The notes under the pieces were generated by a model, which was not told where the DNA came from, ran no database searches, and saw nothing but the letters and a program-made list of their open reading frames with translations. The translations under genes and the position numbers were made by a program. A DNA stretch of 63,144 nucleotides, filler included. It is 7 parts of 7 records of this genome, joined end to end, with 100 filler letters (N's around TTAATTAATTAA, not from the genome) between each part and the next. Parts side by side here need not be neighbours in the genome. Positions count along the whole stretch, not along the records: positions 24,819 to 30,132 come from SRR31156797_7992; 6 more parts are not named here. The stretch is one strand, 5' to 3'. Of this stretch, positions 4,407 through 30,132 are shown piece by piece. How positions within the stretch are numbered: position 1 is the first letter of the stretch; each line of letters starts with the position of its first letter.

Positions 4407-5165
4407 CTAGATACCGCAGAGCATATAGCCGAGGATAAGGCTGCATTTTTCAATGCAGGAAGGGTAAAATTGCTTATGTTGTTTTGTGCGGGAACGGTTC
4501 TCTTTACCGTAATAGAACTCTGCAATTCCCTGCGGTGTATAACCGTTGCAGGCAGCGAAGTTCAGCAATTTTGGGGCGCAGCAATCCCCGGTTCCGGTGG
4601 GGATTCCTTTTGAGCCATATATTATTTCGGGCATGGGCCGGGGTTCGGTGCGGAAATTATGGACTTTGTAGATGGCGTGGATTTCGCGCATCAAGTTTTG
4701 TGAGAGCTTTTTGCGCCGGGAAGAAAGGACAGCATAATCCGCAGTTCCGGGTGTAAGTTCGGCCATTTCACGGCCGATTCTCTTGATTTCCTTTTCTGTG
4801 GATTCGGTCAGGGTCTGAAATTCGTGCGGGTTGATAATCGGGCTTACCCAGCCGGGAATTTCCCAGTGTCCGTTGTACTGTCCGGAAAAAGCTTTTGCTG
4901 ACTGTTTACATCCATCATGGTCCAGATAGGTCATGATCCCGAACATCTGACCACGTGCATTGCCGAAAAGGTAGTCGGTTGAAAAATCAGGGTTGCTTTT
5001 TTCCGGGGGCAGGTCAAAGTCTGTGCGTTTTTCGCTGTCCAGTTTCTGCATTAATTCAAGGCAGAGATGTACCGTTTTTCCCGGACCTAAGGTGTGGGTG
5101 GTTTGGCACCGGGAGCAGTACCCGGAGCAGGATATGTTGCTTTCAAATATTTCCGTGCCGTGCAT
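4407..5165 (-). CDS. Stand-alone homolog of the N-terminal (deaminase) region of TrcP/long RluA-type proteins
   Basis: Motifs GQMFG, AFSG, GTGDCCAPKLL, AEFYYG, FYPSCIEKC, ILGYML; no pseudouridine-synthase domain follows. ATG 5165 preferred because 5190-5220 is the greA terminator hairpin. Confidence 0.7.
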   Translation of the reverse strand: MHGTEIFESNISCSGYCSRCQTTHTLGPGKTVHLCLELMQKLDSEKRTDFDLPPEKSNPDFSTDYLFGNARGQMFGIMTYLDHDGCKQSAKAFSGQYNGHWEIPGWVSPIINPHEFQTLTESTEKEIKRIGREMAELTPGTADYAVLSSRRKKLSQNLMREIHAIYKVHNFRTEPRPMPEIIYGSKGIPTGTGDCCAPKLLNFAACNGYTPQGIAEFYYGKENRSRTKQHKQFYPSCIEKCSLILGYMLCGI

Positions 5166-8765: not shown

Positions 8766-9065
8766 TCATATAACAAATTCCATTTCAGCGAAGAGATTGT
8801 CTTCATCGTAGAGGCCCGGAAATCTGGTTGATATTTCGTTAATGGTTGCGAAATAAGCATCCCAGCCCAGAACCTGAGCCTCTTTTTTCTTATTCACAAA
8901 AATTTTAAATGTGGTTCCCTTGGGGCATTTGGTCATGTTGAGTTCCAGTACCCCCGCCTTGGTTGTTTCCAGCCAGACCGCCGACCATGCCGTGCGGTCG
9001 CCTTCTGTTTTTTTGTATTTTTCAAAGTAGGCTTCAAATATTCTCTCGACCTCTTCTCGATTCAT
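8766..9065 (-). CDS. Hypothetical protein (99 aa)
   Basis: Clean ORF with AAGGAG SD and protein-like composition; no family recognised. Confidence 0.7.
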   Translation of the reverse strand: MNREEVERIFEAYFEKYKKTEGDRTAWSAVWLETTKAGVLELNMTKCPKGTTFKIFVNKKKEAQVLGWDAYFATINEISTRFPGLYDEDNLFAEMEFVI

Positions 9066-9946
9066 TAGTGTACTCCTTATATATAGATTGCGTTTTGAGC
9101 ATAACTTTTTTGTTTGAAAGTGGGCAAGTCGTCAGCGTGGATGCTTTTGTTTTGTCGTCTGCGCTACTGAGGCTTAATGAGGTTTTAGCCGACATATTTG
9201 TAGAGTGGAATTGTCGTGTGAGTAGTTTTTTGTCAAAAATGTAATTTTTTAGAAAGAGAAGTCCGAAAGAGATTGCGCCGAGGGTCTGCTTGTTTTGTGC
9301 TTCTATCCACAAGCCTGATTTCTGGCTGAATAATTACGCGATCAATAATTGGTGAAGCATGTTTTGGACAGCTAGTAATCACTTTTTGCCAAAAGCAGAA
9401 TAGTGCGTTCAGATAAATTGCCACTTTGGTATGTTTTGTGTCTTGCTTCTTTGTTCCGTGTGTTTATTATTAAAAATTATAAGTGGTTATGTGGAGTTGT
9501 GTGTCGTCGGTTTAGAGCGCGCTGAGTGGGGCTTAAGGGGGTGCTAATCCATTTTTAACTTCGAAAATGGGCTGTGCTGGATTTAAAATCTTCATAATTG
9601 TATTTTTGTTTGCCAAAATTGTTTTTTTCTGACATTGTCAAATCTCTGAATCGCTCTAGTCTTTAAAAAATGATCTTTATATCCTGATTTCGATTCAATT
9701 TCAGATTCCTGAAAAGCGGTTGTGCCAATTTTGAGAGATGAAAAAACTCAAAATGTCAAAAAAGAATAGGCACCCATTACTAATTTCGAAATATCACCTG
9801 ATTAGAGCCGTATTGGCTGATACATTTTTCAATGAAAACGCGTCAGCTGCCTGCCGGAAACCTTCCAGAGCTTCGGAACCGTCCGACTCCTGCCTCCCGG
9901 GCCGCTGCACCTGTTGAACCTTATAATCATGGAGTGAGCTGACAAT

Positions 9947-21253: not shown

Positions 21254-23620
21254 CTACATTAATGATATGGGATCCCGGTTAACGGTCACGGAAACCCCTT
21301 TCTCGGTTTGTTTAAAATTTCTGACAGCATGCATGATAATATTTGCAGTTCTGTTCCCGTTCGGATCCTGATTTCTTCCGGCCTTGACAAGGATCTGCCA
21401 GCGGGTTTTGTCTTTGACCTTTTCGATAGGTGAGGGTGAAGGACCGAGGCAATTGGCAGAATTGATCTTTCCGGCGAGGGTTCTGTGCATTCTTGATGCA
21501 GCGGCCTCAACTTCCCTTGGTTTTGTCCCAATGATCCTGATCAAAAATAATCTGCTAAAAGGCGGGTAGTTCAAATTCTTTCTTTGGAATAGCTCAAGAT
21601 TATAGAATGATTTCAACTCTAGTTTCGATGCCATTTGGATCACCGGTTCTTCCGGTGAGAATGTTTGCACGATCACACTGCCCGGAAATTCGCCGCGCCC
21701 GCTTCTTCCGCTTACCTGATAGATCAGATGGAACAATCGCTCGTTGGCACGATGATCGGGAATACCGATCCCGGTATCTGCGTTCATAATACCTACAAGT
21801 GTCACGTCGGGAAAATCAAGTCCTTTGGCGATCATTTGTGTGCCGAGGAGTATATCGTATTTATGCTGTTCGAAATCATTCAGGATACGGGCATGGGCAT
21901 GTTTAGTTCGGGTGGTATCCATATCCATTCTGGCTACCCGTGCTTCCGGAAAGAGCAATTTCAGTTCTTCTTCGATCTTTTGTGTGCCGTGACCCATGGC
22001 TTCCAGCGTATCCGTGTGGCAAGTAGGGCAGGTCTTGGTTAAAGGAAAAGTCGAATTACAAACATGACACATCAATTTATCCAGGCGCTTGTGGTAGGTA
22101 AGGGCCACAGAGCAGCTGGGGCATTGCAGAACCTGCTGGCATTCGCTGCACAGCATGACCGTATTGAATCCTCTGCGATTTTGAAGAACGATGGCCTGCT
22201 TCCCGTCATTTAAAGTTTGAGTAATGGCATTAAGCAGATCTTTGCTGAACAATCCTTGTCTGGGAGCGATTTGCATATCAACCAGTTTGACCTTAGGCAG
22301 TTGAGCTCCGCCAAAACGATGATTTAATTCAAGGCGATGATAGCGTCCAAGGGCGGACAGATAATAAGATTCCATGCTGGGTGTTGCAGAACCCATAACA
22401 ACCGGAATATTCAGAATATTTGCATACATGACGGCAGCGTCGCGAGCATGGTAGCGTGGTGCTTTATCATCTTGTTTATAAGATGCTTCCTGTTCCTCGT
22501 CAACAACGATCAATCCGATATCTTTCATGGGCGCAAACAATGCCGATCGTGCTCCCACAACCACGTGAATGGCGCCTTTCTGGATTTGTGTCCAGGTCCA
22601 TAAGCGTTCTGAGTCGGTCATCTGAGAATGCCAGATCGCGACTTTTTCACCAAATGTTGATCGAAAGCGAGCTGCAACCTGCGGTGTGATCGCGATCTCC
22701 GGGACCATGATCAAGATCTTCTTGTTTGCGGCGAGTTGCTTTTTGGCTAACTCGATATAGACTTCCGTTTTACCGCTACCGGTCACACCGTGAAGCAGAA
22801 CAGGATAGAATTTATTAAAATGGTCTTCGATGTCCTTTATGACTTCGGATTGCTCATCGGACAGTCTGACATCCCGTATTCTTTCTTTTACAAGATGTTC
22901 AAAGGGATCGGCAGGGACTTCCATTTCGCAATCGAGCAAGACACCGTTCTCGACCATTTTTTTGATCACACCGGGAGTCACGCCAAGCTTTTTCATAATG
23001 ACCCTATTCTCTTCCATGGGTGTATCCAGTGAAGAGAGAAGATTTAGAATATCCTGCTGGCGCTTTGTAACGGGTAGGTCTTTGTTCAGGATTTTAACGG
23101 CATTGACTCTGCGGGCTTCCTTGGATTTGGGAAAGATGTTATCGATATACAATTTTCCAGAAGAAAGACCCTCTTTGATCTTTTTTTGTTTGTCTTCAGA
23201 TAGCGTGACAAAATCCAGCATGGACAGGCCACCGGCCGGGACATCCGGCCAGTCCTCGGCATTTTCATTTTCAGAAACAAAACAGAACTGTTGTTTTTTA
23301 AACCCGGTCTCAGAAGGATGAGCCGCGCGAAAACAAATACCGATAGGGGCAAGGTAATAATCGGAGATCCAGGTGATAAGTTTTATCAACTCCTCGGTAA
23401 AGATCGGTCGCTTATCCAGGATCTCGGAAATAGATTTCAAATTATAATTTGGTTTTGAAGGTAAAACAGGGAAAACATCCGTACAGTAGCCGATCTGATT
23501 TCTTGAGCCAAAGGGCGCTTTTACCCTCATACCTGCATGAAGTTTGTCGGCAAGATCGTCGGGGATAGTATAAGTGAATGTCTGGTAAACTTCCTGCGGG
23601 AAGGCGATTGAGCAATACAT
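21254..23620 (-). CDS. priA: Primosomal protein N' (replication restart helicase)
   Basis: LHGVTGSGKTEVY, VDEEQE, NRRGF, four CxxC pairs, GTQMIAKGLDFPDVTLV. Confidence 0.96.
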   Translation of the reverse strand: MYCSIAFPQEVYQTFTYTIPDDLADKLHAGMRVKAPFGSRNQIGYCTDVFPVLPSKPNYNLKSISEILDKRPIFTEELIKLITWISDYYLAPIGICFRAAHPSETGFKKQQFCFVSENENAEDWPDVPAGGLSMLDFVTLSEDKQKKIKEGLSSGKLYIDNIFPKSKEARRVNAVKILNKDLPVTKRQQDILNLLSSLDTPMEENRVIMKKLGVTPGVIKKMVENGVLLDCEMEVPADPFEHLVKERIRDVRLSDEQSEVIKDIEDHFNKFYPVLLHGVTGSGKTEVYIELAKKQLAANKKILIMVPEIAITPQVAARFRSTFGEKVAIWHSQMTDSERLWTWTQIQKGAIHVVVGARSALFAPMKDIGLIVVDEEQEASYKQDDKAPRYHARDAAVMYANILNIPVVMGSATPSMESYYLSALGRYHRLELNHRFGGAQLPKVKLVDMQIAPRQGLFSKDLLNAITQTLNDGKQAIVLQNRRGFNTVMLCSECQQVLQCPSCSVALTYHKRLDKLMCHVCNSTFPLTKTCPTCHTDTLEAMGHGTQKIEEELKLLFPEARVARMDMDTTRTKHAHARILNDFEQHKYDILLGTQMIAKGLDFPDVTLVGIMNADTGIGIPDHRANERLFHLIYQVSGRSGRGEFPGSVIVQTFSPEEPVIQMASKLELKSFYNLELFQRKNLNYPPFSRLFLIRIIGTKPREVEAAASRMHRTLAGKINSANCLGPSPSPIEKVKDKTRWQILVKAGRNQDPNGNRTANIIMHAVRNFKQTEKGVSVTVNRDPISLM

Positions 23621-24818: not shown

Positions 24819-24841
24819 TTCGATTCCGTCCCTGGGCACCA
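24819..24841 (+). tRNA. 3' end of a tRNA (T-loop to CCA), most likely tRNA-Phe; probable att site
   Basis: TTCGATT-CCGTC-CCTGGGC-A-CCA. The anticodon is outside the contig, so identity is inferred from the acceptor and T-stem sequence. Confidence 0.75.
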
Positions 24842-24870
24842 TTTTTTTACAATTACTACCGACAAATAAC

Positions 24871-24900
24871 AAAGCCTCTGATTCCTCAGAGGCTTTTCTT
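24871..24900 (+). terminator. Intrinsic terminator downstream of the tRNA end
   Basis: AAAGCCTCTGA-TTCC-TCAGAGGCTTT followed by TCTT. Confidence 0.8.
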
Positions 24901-24945
24901 GTATCCACAATGATGTAAAAATGATGTATTTGTATTTACTCACTT

Positions 24946-24974
24946 TTGACATGAAATAAATATATAGGTATATT
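24946..24974 (+). promoter_or_regulatory. Near-consensus sigma70 promoter of the R-M operon
   Basis: TTGACA (24946)-17 nt-TATATT (24969). Confidence 0.75.
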
Positions 24975-25006
24975 TAAAAAGAATAAACAGACACAGGAGT
25001 ATTGCT

Positions 25007-26059
25007 ATTAAAACAGCTATATCACTCTTCTCAAGTGCAGGCATTGGCGAAATGTTTTTAAATGATATTGATATCAATACTATTAAAGCAAACGAGTTAT
25101 TACCTCAGCGAGCTGCTCTTTATAGTAAAATACATAATGCCGATGTGATGATTCAAGGTAACATCATGGAGTCAAAAGTCTTTAAAGAGTTTAAAGAATT
25201 TGAACATAAATTTGATTTACTAATTGCAACTCCACCCTGTCAAGGTGTCAGTATCGCAGGCAAAAATAGAGATATTGACAAAATGTCACTAGATGAAAGA
25301 AATTATCTGATATACAAAGTTATAGAATTTGTTTATTTAAAAAATCCTCCTTATGTGCTTATAGAAAATGTTCCAATGTTCTTAAAATTACACCTTCCAT
25401 ATAAAGGAAAACTTACCCAAATAAAAGATATCTTACATTCAGAGTTTAGTAACAAGTATGAAATAACATTAGATATTATGGACTCTGCTGATTTCGGCAC
25501 ACCGCAAAAAAGAAAAAGATCAATAATAAGAATGTATCAAAAAGGTTTATCATGGGATTATCCATCTAAACAAAAGCACATAACTGTTCATGATGCTATT
25601 AGCCACTTGCCTAGCATAGAGTCTGGTGAACACTCCGGCATCCCTTGGCACTTTGCCAGAAAACACATTGATCGCCACATTTTATGGATGAAACATACTC
25701 CAACAGGAAAAAGTGCCTTTGAGAACCCTGAATACTACCCTGCAAAACCTGACGGTAGCCGCATTAAAGGATACAACTCAACCTACAGACGAATCAAGTG
25801 GGATGAACCTGCACCCTCAATAACAATACGCAATGATGCGATTAGCTCGCAAAGAAATGTCCACCCAGGAAGAAAGCTGTTGGACAATACTTATTCTGAT
25901 GCAAGAGTTTTAAGTCCTCACGAGCTTCTACTACTAACAGGTATCTCACCTGATAAAATAAAAACTGAAGACACCTCTGAAATATTACTAAGGCAATGCT
26001 TAGGAGAATGTGTCCCCCCAAAATTAATAAATACAATCGTTGAAAAAATAGGTGTCTAA
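25007..26059 (+). CDS. DNA (cytosine-5) methyltransferase 1, HgaI-like; probable ATT start
   Basis: Motif I SLFSSAGIGE lies upstream of the first ATG (25052); PPCQG, ENVP, Q-x-RxR and GECVPP motifs; AGGAG SD 7 nt before ATT 25007. Confidence 0.9.
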   Translation: MKTAISLFSSAGIGEMFLNDIDINTIKANELLPQRAALYSKIHNADVMIQGNIMESKVFKEFKEFEHKFDLLIATPPCQGVSIAGKNRDIDKMSLDERNYLIYKVIEFVYLKNPPYVLIENVPMFLKLHLPYKGKLTQIKDILHSEFSNKYEITLDIMDSADFGTPQKRKRSIIRMYQKGLSWDYPSKQKHITVHDAISHLPSIESGEHSGIPWHFARKHIDRHILWMKHTPTGKSAFENPEYYPAKPDGSRIKGYNSTYRRIKWDEPAPSITIRNDAISSQRNVHPGRKLLDNTYSDARVLSPHELLLLTGISPDKIKTEDTSEILLRQCLGECVPPKLINTIVEKIGV

Positions 26060-26062
26060 ACT

Positions 26063-27121
26063 ATGAGTTTAAAAGGTTTGTCATTATTTTCAAGCGCAGG
26101 CATCGGTGAAATGTATCTAAAAGATATTGATGTCGATATCATTGCCGCAAATGAACTTATAGAAAAACGAGCTGAGTTATACAAACACATTCATCCTTTT
26201 TCAAAAATGATTACTGGTGATATTAAAGAAAAGTATATTAAGAGAATGATTTTAGATGCAATAAGTCATGAACTTGATATTCTGATTGCAACACCTCCTT
26301 GCCAAGGACTAAGTTCATTAGGTAAAAATAAAAAACAAGAGCATTTTGAGTTAGATGAAAGAAACTATCTCATTTTTGATATCTTCTACTTTATAGACAA
26401 ACTAGATTTTAATTACATATTAATTGAAAATGTCCCTAAATTTTTAGAAATGTATTTCCCTTATAATAATTCAATAGCAAAACTTGATGAAATCCTAAAA
26501 TCAAAATATCAACGTGATTACAATATTGACATTCGAATACTAGATGCTAAGCATTTTGGAGTACCACAATCTCGACCACGTGCCGTAATAAGAATGTATA
26601 AAAAAGGTCTCACATGGAAGCTTCCAGTACAGGAAGATATATTAACTCTTAGGGATGCTATTGGGCACCTACCTAGCTTAGAGTCTGGTGAAAACTCTAA
26701 TATACCTTGGCACTTTGCTAAAAAACATAACGATAGAGCACTAGAAGCCTTAAGACATACACCCACGGGACAAAGCGCTTTCAAAAATAAAACTTATTAT
26801 CCAAAAAAAGAAAATGGTGAAAAAATTAAGGGCTTCCATAACACCTATAAAAGGCTACATTGGGATCAACCATGTCATGCTAGAACAACCTATTGCGGAA
26901 GTATAAGTTCTCATAATAATGTTCACCCTGGGAGAAAAAATGTTGACGGCACATTCTCAGATGCAAGAGTCTTAACCCTTTTAGAGACCTTCATTGTTTC
27001 ATCTTTGCCACCCTCACCTTCTTTCCCAAATAACTTGTCTGATTCTTTTATAAGAACTATGATTGGAGAGAGTATTCCTCCATTAATGTTAAAAAAGATT
27101 ATTAATGGAATAGTAAGGTAA
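26063..27121 (+). CDS. DNA (cytosine-5) methyltransferase 2, HgaI-like
   Basis: SLFSSAGIGE, PPCQG, ENVP, QSRPR, GESIPP; clear paralog of the upstream MTase with a different TRD segment. Confidence 0.93.
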   Translation: MSLKGLSLFSSAGIGEMYLKDIDVDIIAANELIEKRAELYKHIHPFSKMITGDIKEKYIKRMILDAISHELDILIATPPCQGLSSLGKNKKQEHFELDERNYLIFDIFYFIDKLDFNYILIENVPKFLEMYFPYNNSIAKLDEILKSKYQRDYNIDIRILDAKHFGVPQSRPRAVIRMYKKGLTWKLPVQEDILTLRDAIGHLPSLESGENSNIPWHFAKKHNDRALEALRHTPTGQSAFKNKTYYPKKENGEKIKGFHNTYKRLHWDQPCHARTTYCGSISSHNNVHPGRKNVDGTFSDARVLTLLETFIVSSLPPSPSFPNNLSDSFIRTMIGESIPPLMLKKIINGIVR

Positions 27122-27126
27122 ACATT

Positions 27127-28593
27127 ATGACTGCTACAATTGAGAAAGAAAAGTGGAGCTTAAGAAGACACACCAAAGACTTTGACAAGCTATGCCTTGT
27201 TGCTAAATTTATTAAAGAATATACTGAGTCTTCTATATCTAATGATGACAAAGCCAATATCCAACTTCTTTTAAAAGAAAAAGGGTTATACAGTGAAAGA
27301 AATCCTGAAATGCCTCTAGATGCTATTGACCATAAAATTAGAGATTTAGCATTTTACATGTTTGGCTATCGAGCTAAAGTCAACGGTGAAAAAAAGTTCC
27401 TTTTCAGCCCACTGGGAAACCTGTTCTTAAAACACATAGAAAATAAAGATAATTTAACTAAAATATTCTTTGCAATGCTCTGGGGAGTGCAGTTTGAACA
27501 CCCTGAAAGCAATACAAGTTCTGCATTTAATATATATCCCTTTAGGCTCATATTCAGCCTACTTGCCGATGACTCTTTAGAGAACAAACTATATGCTTAT
27601 GAAGTCGAAGGAGTGCTAATGCTTACTCAGCATATCACTACAGCGGAAGAATATAAGGGTCTTGTACAAAAAATTTTATGTTTTAGAAATAAATCAGATG
27701 AAGAACTCATAACGTTTTTTAATAATGAAAGACACGCTATGGTTAATGCAGCCCATGAGTGGGATTATTATTGTTCCGAAGTTTTAGTTAGTTCTGGTGT
27801 CATTGACAAAAAGAACGGAAAAATTATCTGCAAATTAAAGCACGGTAATACAAATACAAATAGGAGAATCACAAAGAATGTTATTACCATCAACAATGAA
27901 CTAATCACATTTTATGAAACACTTGCTCGTGAGTACCCACTTTTTGAAACACCATTGCAATTAAATGATAACGAAAGGTTGAAAGATGATATTATAAAAG
28001 AGATTTATTCTTTTTTCCCAAAATGCCTATTGAGTGAAATTGAAGACAATTCTGAAAAAGCTATAATTATTGAAGAATTATTAGAATTACCGTCACTAAT
28101 TGAGCAATACTCCAACAATAACGATGGTGCAGAAGCATACCTTTTTGAAGATAAGCTTACTGAAGGTTTTAATATGTTTTACAATATTGAAGCAAAAAAA
28201 ATAGGCGGAGCTGGAAACACTGACATAGAATGCTTATACTTGAGCGAACCAACAGATAAAAAATTTGCTGTAGATGCTAAATCTACAAAAAATAAGCTAT
28301 CTGGAATAAACTCGGGCAGACTCAGAGAACACAGAGAAAAAATAGGTGGAGATTACACTATTGTTATAACTTCAAGATATGTACCTGCTGTTAAGGCAGA
28401 TATTAAAAACACAGATATTGTTATAATACTAGCAAGTACATTTTCAGAGTACTTATATAACTGTATACAAAATGACATTAGAGAAATTGATTATAAATAT
28501 TTTGATGAAATAGTCAGGAATAATTACGGGAAAGACATAAGCAAAGATATCTCAGATCTCACCTTTAAACAATTTGCCTCAAGTTCAAGTTAA
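27127..28593 (+). CDS. Type IIS restriction endonuclease, HgaI-like
   Basis: Follows two C5 MTases; C-terminal PD-(D/E)xK-type site (FE...GNTDIE...VDAKST); 488 aa. Confidence 0.8.
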   Translation: MTATIEKEKWSLRRHTKDFDKLCLVAKFIKEYTESSISNDDKANIQLLLKEKGLYSERNPEMPLDAIDHKIRDLAFYMFGYRAKVNGEKKFLFSPLGNLFLKHIENKDNLTKIFFAMLWGVQFEHPESNTSSAFNIYPFRLIFSLLADDSLENKLYAYEVEGVLMLTQHITTAEEYKGLVQKILCFRNKSDEELITFFNNERHAMVNAAHEWDYYCSEVLVSSGVIDKKNGKIICKLKHGNTNTNRRITKNVITINNELITFYETLAREYPLFETPLQLNDNERLKDDIIKEIYSFFPKCLLSEIEDNSEKAIIIEELLELPSLIEQYSNNNDGAEAYLFEDKLTEGFNMFYNIEAKKIGGAGNTDIECLYLSEPTDKKFAVDAKSTKNKLSGINSGRLREHREKIGGDYTIVITSRYVPAVKADIKNTDIVIILASTFSEYLYNCIQNDIREIDYKYFDEIVRNNYGKDISKDISDLTFKQFASSSS

Positions 28594-28667
28594 TTTATTC
28601 ACCATTAACACTGTACAACTCATTTTATATACAATAATCAAAAACAGTACAAAGCAATATCAGCCCC

Positions 28668-30011
28668 TTACCTTATAATAGTCTCCTTGTTAAGCAGTAT
28701 ACTAAACACTCTTTTACTTCTTGCTACTGTATAATAGCACCAGATTTCAGGGTTATGATATTGATCTAGGTCATAATCCATATAGTTAGTGGCGTAGCTT
28801 TCTAACCCAATATCGTCTATATAGCCATCATCATAAAGTTTAACTATGTAGTCCATGTAGTCATCAAGCGTGTCACATATAACCTCTTCTCTGTATGTCT
28901 CTTCAACCTTAACAGTGTCAATTTCCCAATATACTTTTCCTTGCCGTTTAAGTAACACTAAATCATATAAGCTGAATTTACGTTCCTGTAGTTCTTTATA
29001 GAACTTGTTATAGATAAAGAAAGGTACAAGCACTCTTGAGTATGAGATCATACGAAGCCTGTTGTATCGAATTAAAACCTCCTCTTTACGCTCTCTCTTT
29101 GTGCCTGTGCCGTCCTCCTTCATGCCTATACCCTTCATTACATACTTGGTGATGTAGCGCATTACCTGAGTGTAATAGTCCTTTTGATACTTAGACTCAT
29201 CGTTTATGAACTTGATATATAGAAAGTCACCACCCTTGACACTAGTACCAGACTCGACATAACAATCAGGTTTTTTTGAACTGAATCGTTCAAGGTTGAA
29301 AGCCTCTATAAACTGCTCTTTGAACTTTGAAGATATGACATATTCTGTACGACCAATTGCCTGCAAGTTATCTCTTTTACGTTTGATAGCTTTATAAAGC
29401 TCCGAAAAAGCTATACAAGAGTCAGGGATGTAATAAGCACAATGCGAGTGAAGTGTTAAATCTTTCTGAAACTCAAGCGTGTAAATATACTGAAACTTCT
29501 CAGCAGGTATGTAAAACCAAGGTTCTTTCATTCTAAGCCGTGTCATTCTGTTTTGGGTAGGCTCTCTAAAAAGGCGATCATCTCTTAATGTCCTATGAAA
29601 GTGTCGCAATATACCTGACTGATATTTGACTATTTCAACATCTTCATCATTAAACCGTAGATCACTCAGGGTAACGGTAACAAATGCCATCTTAAGATCA
29701 CTATCACCAGCAAGTTTATTGAAAGTATCAGTAAGATTTAGATACTGTGCGTATCGCTTTTTCTGTTGATGCTCTTTCACCTGTGCTAGCGGAATGTCTC
29801 TGTCTCCTACTTTTACTGAGTGAGTTTTAAGATAGTTTTCTATGGCTCGGTCTTTTAGGTCATAAACTTTAAGGAGATAGTTAAGCGTAAAAGCAGGTCT
29901 AAGTTCTCCAACCGCATTTAGAGTAGAACTAAACAAGGGGGACGTAGCAACGTTATCAACCGATGCGATGGTTCGGCGGTCGCACGAAGTGCCCCCACCG
30001 CCCCTACGCAT
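28668..30011 (-). CDS. HUH-superfamily rolling-circle replication initiator (two-tyrosine type)
   Basis: Motif 1 FVTVTL, motif 2 EFQKDLTLHSH, motif 3 YITKYVMK; ATG 30011 overlaps the end of the upstream HTH gene. Confidence 0.82.
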   Translation of the reverse strand: MRRGGGGTSCDRRTIASVDNVATSPLFSSTLNAVGELRPAFTLNYLLKVYDLKDRAIENYLKTHSVKVGDRDIPLAQVKEHQQKKRYAQYLNLTDTFNKLAGDSDLKMAFVTVTLSDLRFNDEDVEIVKYQSGILRHFHRTLRDDRLFREPTQNRMTRLRMKEPWFYIPAEKFQYIYTLEFQKDLTLHSHCAYYIPDSCIAFSELYKAIKRKRDNLQAIGRTEYVISSKFKEQFIEAFNLERFSSKKPDCYVESGTSVKGGDFLYIKFINDESKYQKDYYTQVMRYITKYVMKGIGMKEDGTGTKRERKEEVLIRYNRLRMISYSRVLVPFFIYNKFYKELQERKFSLYDLVLLKRQGKVYWEIDTVKVEETYREEVICDTLDDYMDYIVKLYDDGYIDDIGLESYATNYMDYDLDQYHNPEIWCYYTVARSKRVFSILLNKETIIR

Positions 30012-30132
30012 CGTCAAGACCTTTAGGTTTAACAGTGCCAGACTCTATTATTTCATCTAAAGTCTCTTTCTTGATAAACACACGCCTTGAGATTTTGACA
30101 TACTCGATTCTGCGCTTATAAATCCAGTCGTA
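30004..30132 (-). CDS. Excisionase-like HTH (HTH_17/MerR-like) protein, 5' truncated; absent from the ORF track
   Basis: Manual translation YDWIYKRRIEYVKISRRVFIKKETLDEIIESGTVKPKGLDDA* fits the Xis-type pattern YxWxxxxxIxxVKxxRRV. Confidence 0.75.
   Translation of the reverse strand, partial: YDWIYKRRIEYVKISRRVFIKKETLDEIIESGTVKPKGLDDA

Follow-up and report, generated by a model that had tools for sequence, protein, structure and literature searches.

Two groups of described mobile elements resemble the locus reported here. According to PMC2440964, the integrative and conjugative elements of actinomycetes (AICEs) integrate at the 3′ ends of tRNA genes by way of att identity segments, carry a rep-xis-int operon and replicate by the rolling-circle mechanism, and their initiator, RepSA, is said to resemble the rolling-circle replication (RCR) proteins of phages. 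In streptococci, 118 of 144 integrative and mobilisable elements (IMEs) encode RCR-type relaxases, including the phage-related PHA00330. PMC5704250 depicts these IMEs as small, with a tyrosine integrase and an RCR-type protein (Rep_trans, Rep_2, PHA00330) thought to serve both replication and mobilisation; some are located at tRNA genes (e.g., tRNA-Leu), and some carry type II restriction-modification (R-M) or toxin-antitoxin systems as possible addiction modules. The DNA studied in this work is a stretch of 63,144 bases (hereafter, the window) made of seven contigs joined by spacers of the form N44-TTAATTAATTAA-N44. The element under study corresponds to exactly one of these contigs, at positions 24819-30132 (5314 bp; guanine plus cytosine (GC) content, 0.346). 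A first-pass annotation had listed on it the end of a tRNA gene, a terminator, a promoter, an R-M operon with two methyltransferase genes and a nuclease gene (M1, M2 and R), a helix-turn-helix (HTH) gene and a gene for a rolling-circle replication initiator (Rep), and all of these features are present (Table 1). The interpretation toward which we lean, with moderate confidence, is that a small mobile element has integrated site-specifically at the 3′ end of tRNA-Phe(GAA) and that the contig represents its tRNA-proximal part.

In this model, the backbone of the element would be a translationally coupled pair consisting of an HTH_17 excisionase-family gene followed by the gene for a two-tyrosine HUH Rep. 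A slot that opens between the att site and rep's 3′ end would hold a separately acquired type IIS-like R-M operon that has its own sigma-70 promoter and consists of two strand-specific 5-methylcytosine (m5C) methyltransferases and a FokI/BspD6I-like nuclease. An integrase encoded outside of the contig would, with the help of the HTH_17 protein, cut out a circle. Rep would nick an origin, drive rolling-circle replication of the excised molecule and may, in addition, serve as a relaxase for mobilisation; RepSA works in this manner in AICEs of the pSAM2 type, and the same has been proposed for the RCR-type relaxases of streptococcal IMEs. The R-M system would guard the host from phage and stabilise the element by post-segregational killing. 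The data show what the genes encode, that HTH and Rep are paired in relatives, that the contig begins with a tRNA-Phe end and that a second 48 bp copy exists at equal depth; the integrase, the excision, the replication origin, the mobility and the role of the R-M system are the parts of the model that we infer.

Table 1. Features of the contig at 24819-30132; positions are those of the window.
Feature	Positions	Strand	Remarks
tRNA-Phe(GAA) 3′ end	24819..24841	+	T-loop, 3′ T-stem strand, 3′ acceptor strand, discriminator A, CCA; 23-mer match to full tRNA-Phe genes
Candidate att identity block, 48 bp (tRNA end, T7 run, 18 nt)	24819..24866	+	With one extra T, found again at the head of a 41,240 bp source-run contig
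Intrinsic-terminator-like hairpin, 11 bp stem	24871..24896	+	Just past the repeated segment
Sigma-70-type promoter, TTGACA-17-TATATT	24946..24974	+	Upstream of M1; 11/12 positions, consensus match only
M1, C5 cytosine DNA methyltransferase	25007..26059	+	PF00145, E 1e-49
M2, second C5 cytosine DNA methyltransferase, M1 paralog	26063..27121	+	PF00145, E 1e-45; HhaI and DNMT matches in PDB
R, type IIS-like restriction endonuclease	27127..28593	+	N-terminal recognition part, C-terminal D...D-x-K cleavage domain
Rep, two-tyrosine HUH rolling-circle initiator	28668..30011	-	Converges on the R-M genes; start overlaps the HTH stop by 8 nt
GC-rich imperfect hairpin	29961..30013	.	Spans the HTH stop and the Rep start
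HTH_17 excisionase-family gene, 5′-truncated	30004..30132	-	C-terminal 42 codons plus stop; PF12728, E 1.2e-4

The contig shares with AICEs the tRNA 3′-end site, a xis-like gene and a rolling-circle Rep, and RepSA (PF20199) is the best Pfam match of this Rep, below threshold. There are also several differences. AICEs are elements of 9-24 kb found in Actinobacteria, with an FtsK-like Tra, Kor/Pra regulators and a Nudix Pif, none of which is visible on the contig. The gene order is xis then rep instead of the rep-xis-int of AICEs, and the named relatives of the Rep come from Deferribacterota, whereas the hosts of AICEs are actinobacterial. With respect to the streptococcal IMEs, the Rep family is different, with no match listed to their relaxase models, the host phylum is different, and neither a TcpA-like coupling protein nor an integrase is visible on the contig. 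The literature found on tRNA-integrated elements with a rolling-circle Rep consisted of work on AICEs, integrative and conjugative elements and IMEs only, and none of the papers listed by the search that covered Deferribacteres named that group.

The Rep amino acid sequence includes the motifs FVTVTL (T112, T114), H188-S-H190 and Y286-ITK-Y290. T112, T114, E180, H188 and H190 never vary across 30 aligned Rep sequences, and Y286, K289 and Y290 hardly vary. The spacing of the YxxxY pair is that of the phiX174 A protein. These motifs, together with the HUH alpha/beta fold seen in the predicted AF2 model (predicted local distance difference test (pLDDT), 83.7), place Rep among the two-tyrosine (Y2) HUH enzymes. 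When the model was compared to the viral structures in BFVD, the best match was an unnamed entry (E 3.9e-15; template modelling (TM) score, 0.52), and next came a replication protein of a Vibrio phage, microvirus Reps and G4 A*. The top three PDB representatives found by VIA-align were HUH enzymes (3wrn, Z 6.9; 2x3g, Z 6.9; 7lcc, Z 6.5). A Foldseek search of the model against PDB returned nothing at E <= 1e-3, and a sequence search of PDB with the Rep profile returned nothing useful.

The assignment of Rep to a known family is less direct. Its Pfam matches, RepSA (22 vs. 34 bits) and REP_ORF2-G2P (PF23343; 20.8 vs. 27.8 bits), are below the gathering thresholds, and it has no match to Phage_GPA (PF05840). 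A Pfam scan was carried out on 22 of the 35 representatives of Rep relatives, leaving aside fragments and the close family; eight of the 22 touch Phage_GPA, three of them above the PF05840 threshold. An hhalign comparison of the close Rep family with five Phage_GPA-linked relatives gave a probability of 99.5% (E 2.3e-22), distant relatives reach both Phage_GPA and PHROG 91 ("nicking at origin"), and the ESM Atlas neighbours of Rep are clusters bearing REP_ORF2-G2P and Phage_GPA. Thus, Rep has in common with the Phage_GPA initiators (P2 gpA, phiX174/G4 gene A) the HUH motif, the YxxxY pair and a fold that matches G4 A* and microvirus Reps, and differs from them in that it lacks a PF05840 match, shows an identity of about 16-25% and has no phage genes alongside. 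The first-pass annotation had described a two-tyrosine HUH Rep of the phiX174/P2 kind. The motifs are real and conserved, and the hhalign and BFVD comparisons suggest that Rep is remotely related to the phiX174/P2-type proteins, the tie to Phage_GPA being only remote.

Homologs of Rep are scarce. Seven were found among 5.8 billion clustered proteins, and a search of 1.84 billion proteins identified 35 representatives at E <= 1e-3, eight of them at E <= 1e-30. As judged from these searches, the family is very rare and unnamed. The named homologs are hypothetical proteins that Geovibrio thiophilus and Seleniivibrio woodruffii (Deferribacterota, Geovibrionaceae) encode in their complete chromosomes, the rep genes being EP073_01020 in the former and C8D98_2099 / OF66_1467 in the latter; other relatives are on contigs of 493 kb and 134 kb and on three short contigs of 4.9-6.8 kb. 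Searches by tblastn with Rep found no match in 50,697 phage records or in plasmids, and three distant relatives (P0010, P0020 and P0017) had none in the same phage records. Pattern scans of IMG/VR built on the alignments of Rep and of the HTH protein and on P0007, P0002 and P0010 detected no relative, an absence that is weak evidence because these scans depend on few peptide patterns.

The HTH gene overlaps the start of rep and lacks about 24 codons, which lie beyond the end of the contig. Six full-length clusters of homologs (63-68 amino acids, 77-86% identical) were identified; all of them bear PF12728 and some are named excisionase family. On this basis, the gene is a predicted excisionase, or recombination directionality factor. 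Of seven listed HTH relatives (the six clusters plus one further member), five are on contigs whose length equals, to the base pair, that of a contig with a Rep homolog (5592, 4948, 6846, 2,925,294 and 492,956 bp), and the HTH and Rep proteins of Seleniivibrio woodruffii have consecutive accessions. These coincidences indicate that the HTH-Rep pair is a conserved module living in chromosomes. The complete chromosomes of the two Deferribacterota species that encode Rep homologs also show that the module does live integrated. The Xis-like HTH gene overlapping rep of the first-pass annotation is therefore a 5′-truncated HTH_17 gene whose pairing with Rep is conserved. A GC-rich imperfect hairpin covers the junction between both genes. 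The DNA fold of the region 29940-30030 has z values of -2.9 (+ strand) and -3.3 (- strand) with respect to shuffled sequences, and the hairpin coincides with the 37 N-terminal residues of Rep, which are unconserved and modelled with low confidence. This structure is a candidate regulatory or origin element. The intergenic region between R and rep (28590-28670) folds no better than shuffled sequences.

The first 23 bases of the contig (TTCGATTCCGTCCCTGGGCACCA) occur once in the window (0 expected). The body of the tRNA is not on the contig and ARAGORN called no tRNA over the window, as expected when only a 23-nucleotide (nt) piece is present. An exact-match scan of IMG/VR located the 23-mer in 15 loci, where it ends a full tRNA-Phe(GAA) in three cases and a tRNA-Ile in one; in the other 11, it forms part of an incomplete tRNA-Phe of which only the 3′ half, from the anticodon loop on, is present. 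Phages with tRNA-Phe as their target are the probable source of these 11 partial halves, which would be attP cores. These contexts identify the first bases of the contig as a tRNA-Phe 3′ end, one that serves frequently for attachment, and support the earlier assignment to a tRNA. The partial halves (L001, L003-L007, L010 and L012-L015) extend from the anticodon loop to the CCA and are found around position 401 of their loci, with the exception of L012 (79-101); six or seven of them have one nearly identical flank.

Evidence from the assembly was obtained from the contigs (Logan) of run X1, which is probably the source run and is, therefore, not independent. They include the same 5314 bp contig, at a depth of 19; X2, another run of this sample, yielded no matching contig, which counts neither for nor against the model. 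Another contig, of 41,240 bp and depth 18.5, has 49 terminal bases that are those of 24819-24866 with one extra T in the T-run; the two segments differ by that one gap and by no letter, and the sequences beyond them are unlike. A 1158 bp contig (depth 17.5) that ends with 24819-24848, the same 30-mer, lies upstream of the element contig. Position 24819 is k-1, i.e., 30 nt, ahead of the first difference (seven T versus eight T) from the second locus, which makes the start at the T-loop an effect of the assembly. The tRNA end seen by the first-pass annotation is real, and both ends of the contig are branch points of the assembly graph and not biological ends. At the right end, an 85 bp contig of depth 30 overlaps the last 30 bases (30103-30132), where the element contig has depth 19. 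This difference, inside a very conserved HTH gene, suggests that a second related HTH-bearing element is present in the sample at a depth of about 11.

A second copy of the tRNA end, which the first-pass annotation proposed to look for, does then exist: 48 bp that head the 41 kb contig at equal depth. A second locus with the tRNA end plus 25 bases at the same depth is what attL and attR, or attP and attB, would give, and the copy has the look of an att duplicate. The window has no match to the loose end (30 letters) of the 41 kb contig. Just past the repeated segment are the terminator-like hairpin and the near-consensus promoter, which agree with the terminator and strong promoter announced before; promoter-like sites are in total not above those of shuffled sequences (16 vs. 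22.2). An Rfam search of the contig at E <= 10 returned chance-level matches only.

The R-M operon lies between these signals and rep. M1 and M2 are paralogs that share 47% identity, each with PPCQG and ENV motifs. The FxGxG motif (motif I) of M1 (SLFSSAGIGE; window 24995-25054) is upstream of the first ATG (25052), and a start at that codon would remove it. Because this N-terminal motif precedes the first ATG, M1 needs a different start, which is probably the rare start codon ATT at 25007, in frame and 7 nt after AGGAG. The predicted fold of R (AF2 model of moderate quality; pLDDT, 75) matched N.BspD6I (E 1.9e-10), FokI (E 5e-8) and the recognition domain of BpuJI in a Foldseek search of PDB. 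A sequence search of PDB found no relative of R. Its match to PF09491 (RE_AlwI) is below the gathering threshold (E 2.4e-4; 20.6 vs. 23.1 bits) and is limited to residues 87-192; two R homologs bear the precomputed PF09491 label. The operon thus combines two PF00145 methyltransferase genes with a nuclease that, in the predicted fold, has a recognition part and a FokI-like cleavage domain, and the recognition site would be asymmetric, with one m5C methyltransferase per strand. PMC12898733 cites a comparable arrangement for the type IIS system HgaI, where two separate cytosine methyltransferases act one on each strand. The likeness to HgaI, two m5C methyltransferases and a type IIS-like nuclease, is one of arrangement and not of sequence comparison. 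The R fold resembles N.BspD6I, FokI and BpuJI, and the R-M relatives examined pair an m5C enzyme with an N6/N4 enzyme and a C-protein-like HTH.

The R-M genes have a lower GC content than Rep and HTH (0.32-0.35 vs. 0.38-0.39). More than 1143 homologs of R were found, the named ones mostly Bacteroidota "restriction endonuclease", while tblastn searches of plasmids and phages at E <= 1e-10 returned no match. In IMG/VR, 13 loci have R relatives (58-62% identity over full-length matches) and two further loci match part of R. By tblastn, these 13 loci are free of relatives of Rep and of the HTH protein, and a tRNA-Phe is absent from all of them. The GC difference and the composition of the 13 loci point to the R-M system as foreign, separately acquired cargo that belongs to a widespread cassette family able to travel without Rep. 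The type IIS cargo of the first-pass annotation is supported as a type IIS-like system of separate origin. The cassettes examined (L016, L024, L025 and L027) consist of a C-protein-like HTH_3 gene, one m5C methyltransferase and R, with an N6/N4 methyltransferase also in the two where that gene was scanned; the cassette of the contig has a second m5C paralog in place of the N6/N4 enzyme and is without a C protein. The L025 cassette is downstream of tuf on a contig that also bears tRNAs and a homocitrate-synthase-like gene, and is therefore chromosomal, and that of L027 (6390-10673) is directly upstream of a group of tailed phage genes (small and large terminase, portal, Mu-F-like) on a contig of 43.7 kb. 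IMG/VR classes the R-M relatives L016-L026 and L028, each a whole contig (4.1-7.5 kb) without terminal repeats, as viral. No viral gene was seen in the small ones that were examined, and the viral label looks doubtful. Beside the L024 cassette, an open reading frame at 4530-4907 has a borderline match to the N-terminal domain of ArdC, an anti-restriction protein (E 1.8e-4; 22.1 vs. 22.6 bits).

As for the host phylum, the Rep relatives, together with the sigma-70 promoter and the Shine-Dalgarno sites, speak against Bacteroidota, and the R-M relatives speak for it. The contigs of the window span GC contents from 0.30 to 0.49, and the window (1-63144) as a whole looks like a mixed bin or metagenome and not like one contiguous locus. 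Since it is made of joined contigs, the neighbours that the element contig has in the window are not its genomic neighbours. A scan covered 50 of 57 long open reading frames (ORFs), all of them outside the element contig (the ORFs at 8769-9065 and 9037-9312 and the PriA-like one at 21257-23620 were among those left out). The 50 ORFs, from the other six contigs, are housekeeping genes.

Several observations weigh against an element integrated at tRNA-Phe. The 50 ORFs scanned include no integrase or other mobile-element gene, and no integrase was detected by Pfam in the 5.3 kb contig, which is truncated at its right end; the integrase expected by the first-pass annotation was thus not seen in the sequence covered. 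In many tRNA islands, the integrase gene adjoins the tRNA, which is not so on this contig. The contig breaks off on the right within the HTH gene, so that up to tens of kb more, including virion or transfer genes, may follow. What was observed of a possible flanking repeat is the second 48 bp copy, with no linkage seen between the 41 kb contig and the element contig or the far end of the element. A single upstream contig was displayed, while the balance of depths needs two, and the second copy could come from a second tRNA-Phe gene or from the empty site of a co-existing strain. Moreover, the best structural neighbours of Rep are viral Reps, and scans of genome contigs and metagenome contigs found no Rep relative.

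The viral structural neighbours of Rep fit a rival explanation, in which the contig would belong to a larger virus or provirus (inovirus-like, microvirus-derived or P2-like) with the virion genes beyond the right end. Rep would then be the phage replication initiator, the HTH protein a Cox/Xis-type regulator and the R-M system a moron. The viral identity of the best fold matches in BFVD and the reach of distant Rep relatives to Phage_GPA and PHROG 91 are consistent with it. So are the three short contigs of Rep relatives, which have the size of small single-stranded DNA (ssDNA) phage genomes, and the R-M cassette that rides tailed phage L027. We nonetheless consider a virus or provirus improbable. 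The earlier statement that the visible 5.3 kb includes no capsid, Zot-like ATPase or conjugation gene was borne out by Pfam and PHROGs, and no virion gene of any kind is found there. Neither Rep nor its three more distant relatives matched the phage records, the IMG/VR pattern scans found no relative of Rep or of the HTH protein, and 3.5 kb of R-M cargo would be hard to fit in a genome of microvirus size.

It is also rather unlikely that the contig is a decayed, immobile island with no working integrase or origin, in which the xis-rep pair would be a remnant and the R-M system would have inserted independently downstream of tRNA-Phe. Such a remnant would explain why no integrase is seen on this contig or among the ORFs scanned on the six others. 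Cassettes of the same R-M family do insert alone elsewhere, as that next to tuf in L025, and PMC2440964 mentions remnant AICEs without parts of rep. The state of the genes argues otherwise: all five ORFs are intact where visible, Rep retains every catalytic residue, the 8-nt overlap of xis and rep is preserved, and the 77-86% identity of the HTH protein to its relatives suggests purifying selection.

A free form of the same DNA, either a low-copy rolling-circle plasmid or the excised element, would have an attP identical to the attB of the chromosomal tRNA-Phe, and the 41 kb contig would be the unoccupied site of the chromosome. The two sequences that follow the same 30-mer in the graph fit a pairing of attP and attB no less than one of attL and attR, and three HTH-Rep relatives are on contigs of 4.9-6.8 kb. 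We regard this explanation as very unlikely: the depth equals that of chromosomal contigs (19 vs. 18.5 and 17.5), which is unusual for a small rolling-circle plasmid, relatives are found inside complete chromosomes and on contigs of 493 kb and 134 kb, and no joint between the two ends of the contig is reported among the contigs of the source run. A rolling-circle transposon (IS91 or Helitron-like) was set aside given the tRNA att duplicate and the excisionase gene (one distant Rep relative, P0028, has a sub-threshold Helitron_like_N match), and a phage satellite (PICI or P4-like), suggested by the first-pass annotation, was rejected since no feature points to it and the visible 5.3 kb has no integrase, primase-helicase or packaging genes.

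Returning to the integrated element, the first-pass annotation had proposed that it may represent an undescribed family. This is correct for Rep, whose family is rare and unnamed, but not for the concept, given what PMC2440964 and PMC5704250 report on AICEs and streptococcal IMEs. A minimal integrative replicon formed by an integrase, an excisionase and a rolling-circle Rep, with defence cargo, is a known design, of which the contig would be a new and partly visible lineage. The novelty is threefold: a Rep family that scores under all Pfam thresholds, the presence of this family outside Firmicutes and Actinobacteria, and an R-M system in remodelled form. The conceptual gain is modest because the mechanism and the logic of the cargo were already known. 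A more daring proposal, possible in our view and somewhat doubtful, is that the HTH_17-Rep pair defines an undescribed family of tRNA-integrating rolling-circle elements of about 5-7 kb, present in Deferribacterota and uncultured bacteria outside Firmicutes and Actinobacteria, with a variable cargo slot between att and the 3′ end of rep, occupied on this contig by the type IIS R-M system. Their Rep would derive from the Reps of ssDNA phages, and the elements would descend from small ssDNA phages without having kept a capsid, or might be satellites of such phages.

If the interpretation is correct, replicons that combine an integrase, an excisionase and a rolling-circle Rep, known so far mainly from Actinobacteria (AICEs) and streptococci (IMEs), would extend to new phyla, and the new Rep family would bridge the GPA-type initiators of phages and chromosomal elements. 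The contig also shows a widespread restriction cassette in remodelled form, with two m5C methyltransferases instead of one m5C and one N6/N4 enzyme, carried by what would be such an element, which makes it of practical interest for the mining of type IIS enzymes.

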